Shown here in pieces: positions 57,897 to 57,934 of a DNA stretch of 64,000 bases (positions are counted from its first letter, which is position 1; each line of letters begins with the position of its first letter). Source of the stretch: Eledone cirrhosa. Its lineage: Eukaryota. The DNA lies in NCBI GenBank assembly GCA_964016885.1, contig OZ024745.1, positions 11,594,001 through 11,658,000 on the forward strand, given 5' to 3'. A program made the position numbers and the translations under genes. The notes beneath the pieces are model-generated. The model was not told the origin of the DNA, did not search any database, and saw only the letters and a list, made by a program, of their open reading frames with translations.

Positions 57897-57934
57897 CCTT
57901 TACCGGTTTCGCAGTTCTTCTGCTTTTCAAAAGG
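57897..57934 (-). ncRNA. Minimal hammerhead ribozyme with U3-A8 core and palindromic stem III (family L, element about 57760-57968)
   Basis: Minus strand: CCTT-TTGAAAA-GCAG aagaa CTGC-GAA-ACCGGT-A-AAGG. Stems I and II pair perfectly. Confidence 0.85.

Follow-up and report, generated by a model that had tools for sequence, protein, structure and literature searches.

A minimal U3-A8 hammerhead motif in a (TA)n-flanked repeat of Eledone cirrhosa, likely the 3' end of a Penelope-like element

Results

The window analysed here, a stretch of 64,000 nucleotides from Eledone cirrhosa (contig OZ024745.1, positions 11,594,001 to 11,658,000), is microsatellite-rich, animal-type DNA full of retroelement debris. 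On its minus strand, at 57897-57934, sequence, descriptor and folding identify an intact minimal type I hammerhead of 38 bases, which matches the first-pass annotation of this DNA letter for letter. Read 5' to 3', it opens with CCTT (57934-57931), which forms a 4-bp stem I with the closing AAGG (57900-57897). The core TTGAAAA (57930-57924) supplies U3 U4 G5 A6 A7 A8 A9 and thus a U3-A8 pair; stem II, GCAG/CTGC, has 4 bp with G10.1-C11.1 and a 5-nt loop, AAGAA. Downstream of stem II come G12 A13 A14 (GAA), the self-complementary ACCGGT at 57907-57902 (A15.1-C-C-G-G-U16.1) and, as N17, an A at 57901.

All catalytic bases are retained in this copy. More specifically, it contains N3-UGAN-N8-A with a Watson-Crick 3-8 pair, GAAA, U16.1 and H17, a stem I within the 3-5 bp range and open to both ends, a stem II with G10.1-C11.1, and a palindromic 15.1-16.1 segment predicted to be unable to close as a monomer. 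The extra unpaired base that the consensus has between A9 and G10.1 is absent, here and in the second copy described below, which is not disqualifying, as published exceptions exist. By structural definition, the sequence is a type I hammerhead of the minimal class, combining U3-A8 in the core with a palindromic stem III such as occurs in Penelope-like elements (PLEs); descriptor and base-by-base layout agree on this assignment, which had been proposed before. Standard hammerhead numbering would place the cut between 57901 and 57900.

We searched the window with a strict descriptor (TTGANAA, stem II of at least 4 bp, GAAA, a palindrome of 4-8 nt, H, and stem I of at least 3 bp) and, as a control, 400 dinucleotide shuffles of its 44,369 unmasked (non-repeat) bases. 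The single match in the window was 57897-57934, against 0 of 400 shuffles, so that within the window the motif count exceeds that of shuffled sequence. With position 13 relaxed, the window gave two matches, while one shuffle in 400 had one match and none had two. Allowing any Watson-Crick 3-8 pair added one site, a family A hammerhead (8074), with a single match in 2 of 400 shuffles. Rfam gave no match at gathering score in the window, and at E values up to 10 the 42 weak matches in 55500-58300 were microsatellite or hairpin noise with no hammerhead family among them; such silence is to be expected for a motif lacking a stem III loop.

Looser patterns retrieved 7 loci from metagenome contigs, none with stem I, and 70 from viral contigs, where one (L061, 51% GC, with a long weak stem II) had both stems; these 77 loci were treated as chance matches rather than relatives. 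Pattern scans of genome contigs yielded 0 matches, as did a pattern for the 3' part of the element in viral contigs. An nhmmer profile built from the two copies detected no third one within the window, and its weak matches outside the window are the loci retrieved by the motif pattern itself. Chance resemblance within AT-rich, low-complexity DNA could be argued from the position of stem I and the core in runs of T and A, from the folding z of the monomer (-0.94) and from the matches of looser patterns in unrelated microbial and phage DNA. This reading is already largely refuted, and we consider it negligible: the strict descriptor finds nothing in 400 shuffles, only one of the 77 collection matches has both stems, and weakly, and a homologous second copy retains stem II through a double change.

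This second copy, on the plus strand at 55720-55755, is a degenerate relative with the UUGAAAA core, a stem II of 5 bp, ACCGGU, A17 and a stem I of 3 bp, located in a 190-nt piece between (TA)n runs (55681-55870, plus). The homology of the two copies is clear by blastn within the window (49 of 65 nt identical, 75%, E 1.5e-7), and it extends into a 29-nt 5' flank (57935-57963, minus) that starts just after the (TA)n run, in which 19 of 29 nt are identical and which only 1 in 10,000 shuffles aligns as well. Downstream of the motif, over 115 nt of the 55681-55870 piece, the copies are not detectably related (266 of 1,000 shuffles score as well). The relative had been described as having the same core; the homology holds, and the core does not, given that positions 55743-55746 read G-C-A-A instead of GAAA (A13C, at 55744), a departure from the minimal hammerhead core. 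A13 is a consensus core position, and mutation of that core disqualified hits in a published search (PMC3088659). From its sequence, the 55720-55755 copy is thus likely inactive, and we consider it best explained as having inserted independently, as a member of a diverged sister family in which the core has decayed.

The stems of the two copies had also been taken as visible covariation. Among the eight stem pairs compared, five are unchanged, two are compensated (C-G to U-A in stem I, inside T/A runs, and G-C to U-A in stem II) and one is broken, the fourth pair of stem I being A-A in 55720-55755, which leaves that stem at 3 bp. A simulation of independent mutation at the observed rate gave P about 0.012 for at least two compensated pairs; a shuffle control was not significant (118 of 500). 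Covariation is therefore suggestive only, a hint and not a proof, as two sequences cannot establish it.

Two further hammerheads, family A, are located on the plus strand at 8070-8105 and 60342-60377. They have C3-G8, a bulged A and an ACGT palindrome, and belong to 229-nt repeats that are 93% identical. These repeats share a 3' end 83-84 nt downstream but differ in where they start on the 5' side, and stem I of the 60342 copy contains a mismatch. No similarity between family A and the U3-A8 family was detected by blastn within the window, and the earlier view of the U3-A8 motif as a second family is upheld.

Each U3-A8 motif is contained in a piece of about 200 nt that is bounded by (TA)n at either end (about 57761-57966 and 55681-55870). 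At the intact copy, a (TA)20 run at 57967-58006 borders the element on its 5' side and was likely the insertion target, a (TA)n run at 57732-57760 borders it on the 3' side, and the AT-rich 3' part occupies 57761-57896 (minus). Reads and contigs were aligned to 57756-57972, and the counts cover 57756-57859 only, 57860-57972, which includes the hammerhead, having been left out as repeat. On 57756-57859 we counted 1,797 reads in DNA run X21, 2,209 contigs in X1, which may be the source sample, and 30 contigs in X5 (another organism label). By identity, 14 of the X21 reads were at 99% or more, 470 at 95-99%, 882 at 90-95% and 431 below 90%. These counts identify the 3' part of the element (57761-57859) as a diverged high-copy repeat, and dispersal at high copy number in microsatellites was found for this part only. 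A run guessed to be RNA (X15, another organism label) had 0 reads on 57756-57859, which is not proof of absence.

The loose ends of these alignments revealed that other copies meet (TA)n at 57821 (35 X1 contigs, also X5) and that others carry an end near 57761 (17 X1 contigs). The repeat has, in other words, two alternative 3' ends about 60 nt apart, a tail-like double end, which we liken to the optional 3' "tail" of PLEs, a segment that marks two reverse-transcription start sites; at about 60 nt it is longer than the published 30-40 nt (PMC11167929).

The two copies lie 2.1 kb apart on opposite strands in convergent orientation, and therefore cannot share a transcript; with one core broken in addition, they were rejected as partners of a dimer. 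No tandem or inverted partner was found at either site, and neither copy has another on its own strand within the window. Among the window's open reading frames, none of at least 150 aa with a reverse transcriptase (RT) or GIY-YIG domain adjoins either copy; truncated PLE copies normally do not have the ORF. The upstream neighbour, a repeat at 58006-58256, was considered as a possible 5' portion of the element carrying the intact copy and was rejected, its relative at 47268-47496 not being followed by the motif. This neighbour belongs to another (TA)n-flanked family, with a second site at 47097-47496 (76% identical between sites), where an inverted truncated partner lies across a TA run. Membership in the Naiad elements was likewise rejected, as no ORF is linked to the motif and Naiads are described without canonical hammerheads (PMC8557442).

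Two GIY-YIG-like ORF remnants are present elsewhere in the window, at 6256-7074 (plus) and 14093-15139 (minus), both detected by Atlas features, with scores of 0.95-0.97 to clusters partly annotated as GIY-YIG; Pfam recognised neither. No such remnant in the window is linked to the U3-A8 family. At 7277-7320 (plus), 200 nt after the stop of the first, a decayed C3-G8 hammerhead-like motif (stem I GTCA/TGAC, CTGAAGA, a mismatched stem II and GAA-AGAACT-T) brings the number of hammerhead families to three and immediately adjoins a PLE remnant. The second is the C-terminal part of a frameshifted PLE-like RT and GIY-YIG remnant (14093-15818, minus, upstream to about 16200), whose linker reads CxC-x5-C-x4-C and whose long 3' region reaches about 11600; its ends, 11491-11602 and 16082-16193, form a 112-nt inverted repeat, and the descriptor found no intact hammerhead in this region.

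Other repeats accompany these elements. A very abundant short family (5254-5441, 11373-11477, 29413-29598, 52957-53094, 53198-53566, 56173-56556, 57488-57672 and 62979-63120) often occurs as head-to-head inverted pairs inside (TA)n and has a GCCGTC-GAAA-CGGC hairpin with no hammerhead match; it resembles an end of a further element that targets TA. Foldback elements, inverted repeats of 200-290 nt, lie beside (TA)n runs at 55913-56113, 52543-52833 and 53286-53566. An 11-kb satellite at 31552-42704 consists of 294 copies of a 38-nt unit, 97% matched and strongly purine-skewed. Broken non-LTR RT remnants (Pfam RVT_1) are found on the minus strand at 20541-23182 and 60862-62135, the latter with a PHD-like finger after the RT.

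The folding of the 57897-57934 motif was evaluated as monomer and as homodimer. The monomer forms stems I and II at a minimum free energy (MFE) of -6.4 kcal/mol, no better than shuffles (z -0.94), and closing A15.1-U16.1 within it costs 5.4 kcal/mol, with a pair probability of 0.00. Cofolding of two copies gave a homodimer of -20.3 kcal/mol with the double-hammerhead fold, stem I strands exchanged and a stem III formed in trans by the two ACCGGU segments (probability 0.92); the ensemble gain of the dimer is about 6.8 kcal/mol. Cofolding is a weak judge of this, as a palindrome pairs with itself by construction; the family A dimer gave no double hammerhead by the same procedure. The dimer model agrees with published tests on minimal hammerheads (PMC4209133, PMC11167929), including those on a Schistosoma mansoni motif, which was not cut as a single unit and showed low cutting as dimers and trimers (PMC4209133). 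By folding and by analogy with these tests, cleavage is predicted to occur in the dimer only.

Even a dimer may cut poorly, as A17 can pair with U3. The U3-A17 pair is part of the MFE structure of monomer and dimer (probability 0.56 and 0.46, respectively), and A17 is present in both copies. It is the counterpart of the inhibitory C3-G17 trap, which has been proposed as an explanation of the NUH rule (PMC3884650). We weighed whether the motif is a hammerhead derivative that does not cleave: the U3-A17 pair would lock stem I across the position of cleavage, and the motif, if retained, would serve the PLE RT as a signal for protein binding or folding. The predicted pair and the A17 of both copies would fit such a derivative, as would the A13C change that the second copy tolerates and the observation that insertion of an Anolis PLE in vitro did not need hammerhead cleavage (PMC11167929). 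However, in the dimer model the trap contributes no more than 0.7 kcal/mol to each core (-20.3 versus -18.9), G17 variants of tertiary-stabilised hammerheads still cleave (PMC3884650), and the first copy retains every catalytic base, and we regard a non-cleaving derivative as very improbable.

Discussion

We propose that the 57897-57934 motif is a minimal type I U3-A8 hammerhead, solo in a repeat of about 205 nt between (TA)n runs, that this repeat likely represents the 3' end (pLTR) of a Penelope-like retroelement, truncated on its 5' side, that the hammerhead would cut slowly as a dimer after A17 in the tandem transcript of the parent element, and that it is likely silent at this site; we put the probability of this reading at roughly three in four. 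Its sequence, its non-randomness, the homology of two copies, their microsatellite flanks and the high copy number of the 3' part are established. The PLE origin of the repeat is likely, and it is drawn by analogy, because neither copy is joined to an ORF for RT or endonuclease. It is favoured by the (TA)n flanks of both copies, (TA)n being a preferred PLE target (PMC8557442), and by the two GIY-YIG PLE-like ORF remnants in the window, one of them near its own decayed hammerhead.

In the parent element, two copies in a tandem transcript would join through their ACCGGU palindromes, which make a common stem III of 6 bp, and, as cofolding predicts, swap stem I strands to give a double hammerhead, which would cut slowly after A17 of each copy. 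The cutting would probably be helped by the RT-endonuclease protein of the element, judging from published PLE hammerheads, and target-primed reverse transcription may then have dropped truncated 3' ends into (TA)n. The 57897-57934 copy is solo, and therefore most likely a passive relic, inactive in place.

The closest counterparts are published PLE hammerheads. Natural U3-A8 covariation was first reported in 2011 (PMC3088659), and U3-A8 minimal hammerheads are described from the pLTRs of Cercyon PLEs of S. mansoni, where the hits number about 1,300 and most of them are single (Cervera and De la Pena 2014, PMC4209133, the only paper that our literature search returned on U3-A8). The Cercyon motifs (family Sm3; rows 3 and 4 of Fig. 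S3 in PMC4209133, a set of 56 motifs taken here from the machine-read text of the PDF) are likewise type I minimal, with U3-A8, a short stem I and a palindromic 15-16 region, and are mostly single and dispersed; row 4, which is PLE-linked, has a UUGAAAA core identical to that of 57897-57934. In contrast, rows 3 and 4 have an extra base after A9, a 4-nt palindrome and G or U as N17, whereas our motif has no bulge, a 6-nt palindrome (ACCGGU) and A17. The hammerhead of a PLE from the shrimp Marsupenaeus japonicus shares with it the absence of a bulge, a 4-bp stem II, a 6-nt self-complementary stem III and A17; it differs in having C3-G8, with an A17 that is unable to pair with position 3, and in residing within a recognisable PLE rather than a putative one (PMC4209133). 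Drosophila, rotifers and mosquitoes have "small palindromic helix III" variants that we place beside the shrimp type in this comparison, and the bulge between A9 and G10.1 is missing from two of the 56 rows, shrimp and Saccoglossus 2 (PMC4209133).

The Anolis Poseidon element PAc also has a minimal hammerhead near its 3' end, AT-rich targets and two 3' ends, although its hammerhead is C3-G8 and was tested biochemically, cutting only with the protein of the element and being dispensable for insertion in vitro, and its tail of 30-40 nt is shorter than the spacing of about 60 nt seen here (Frangieh et al. 2024, PMC11167929). By analogy with these systems, the 57897-57934 motif would work like a PLE minimal hammerhead, and its membership in a PLE pLTR is likely. 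Each of its features is separately known, and the combination of U3-A8, no bulge, a 6-nt palindrome and A17 occurs in none of the 56 rows of Fig. S3 (PMC4209133). Pairing of the U3-A17 or A17-U3 type was found in 0 of these 56 rows and in no hammerhead paper of our literature search; the principal survey of variants of this kind, Lunse et al. 2017, cited here through PMC6765202 and outside that search, may list the variant.

Also counting against the PLE reading in this form, both copies start 32-39 nt upstream of the motif, a shared start that could reflect a defined 5' end instead of truncation at random. The pieces of about 200 nt could accordingly be complete non-autonomous units mobilised by a PLE, either SINE-like derivatives of a pLTR or solo monomers of a retrozyme, whose 5' end is fixed a short way upstream of the hammerhead. 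Besides the shared start and common flank (19 of 29 nt), this would be in line with the two family A copies, which start 171 and 128 nt upstream instead, and with solo retrozyme monomers reported to derive from pLTRs (bioRxiv 10.64898/2026.07.22.740005). Animal non-LTR retrozymes are short non-coding units with a type I hammerhead, related to pLTRs, of which solo monomers occur; they differ in their tandem units, mostly canonical hammerheads and circular RNAs, no tandem being present here (PMC7229834; bioRxiv 10.64898/2026.07.22.740005). By the tandem-unit criterion we rejected a non-LTR retrozyme, as the window has no such array of hammerhead units and the two copies, separated by 2.1 kb, are convergent and related only in part. 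For a non-autonomous unit more generally, the shared start is seen in only two copies, the unit is not repeated in tandem in the window, the 3' parts of the two copies are unrelated, described retrozymes have mostly canonical hammerheads in tandem arrays (PMC7229834), and RNA run X15 gave 0 reads (another organism label, and not proof of absence). We hold such a unit to be unlikely, while giving it more weight than any other alternative.

A bolder version, in which U3 and A17 are fixed family-wide as a built-in 3-17 lock over the hammerhead's own cut site, to be opened by a partner copy or by a PLE protein, and in which the whole travels as a defined non-autonomous unit of about 200 nt targeting (TA)n, is a long shot.

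Minimal hammerheads, including U3-A8 forms, occur by the thousands in animal genomes as PLE debris, and hence the motif alone matters little. The truncated 3' end of a PLE that we favour adds one more U3-A8 family, with a feature combination absent from the published representative alignment (PMC4209133, Fig. S3). If A17 is conserved family-wide, the family would offer a compact natural experiment on two points: co-evolution of position 17 with the 3-8 pair, and the object of selection on PLE hammerheads, which may be cutting or folding alone, cleavage being dispensable for PLE insertion in vitro (PMC11167929).
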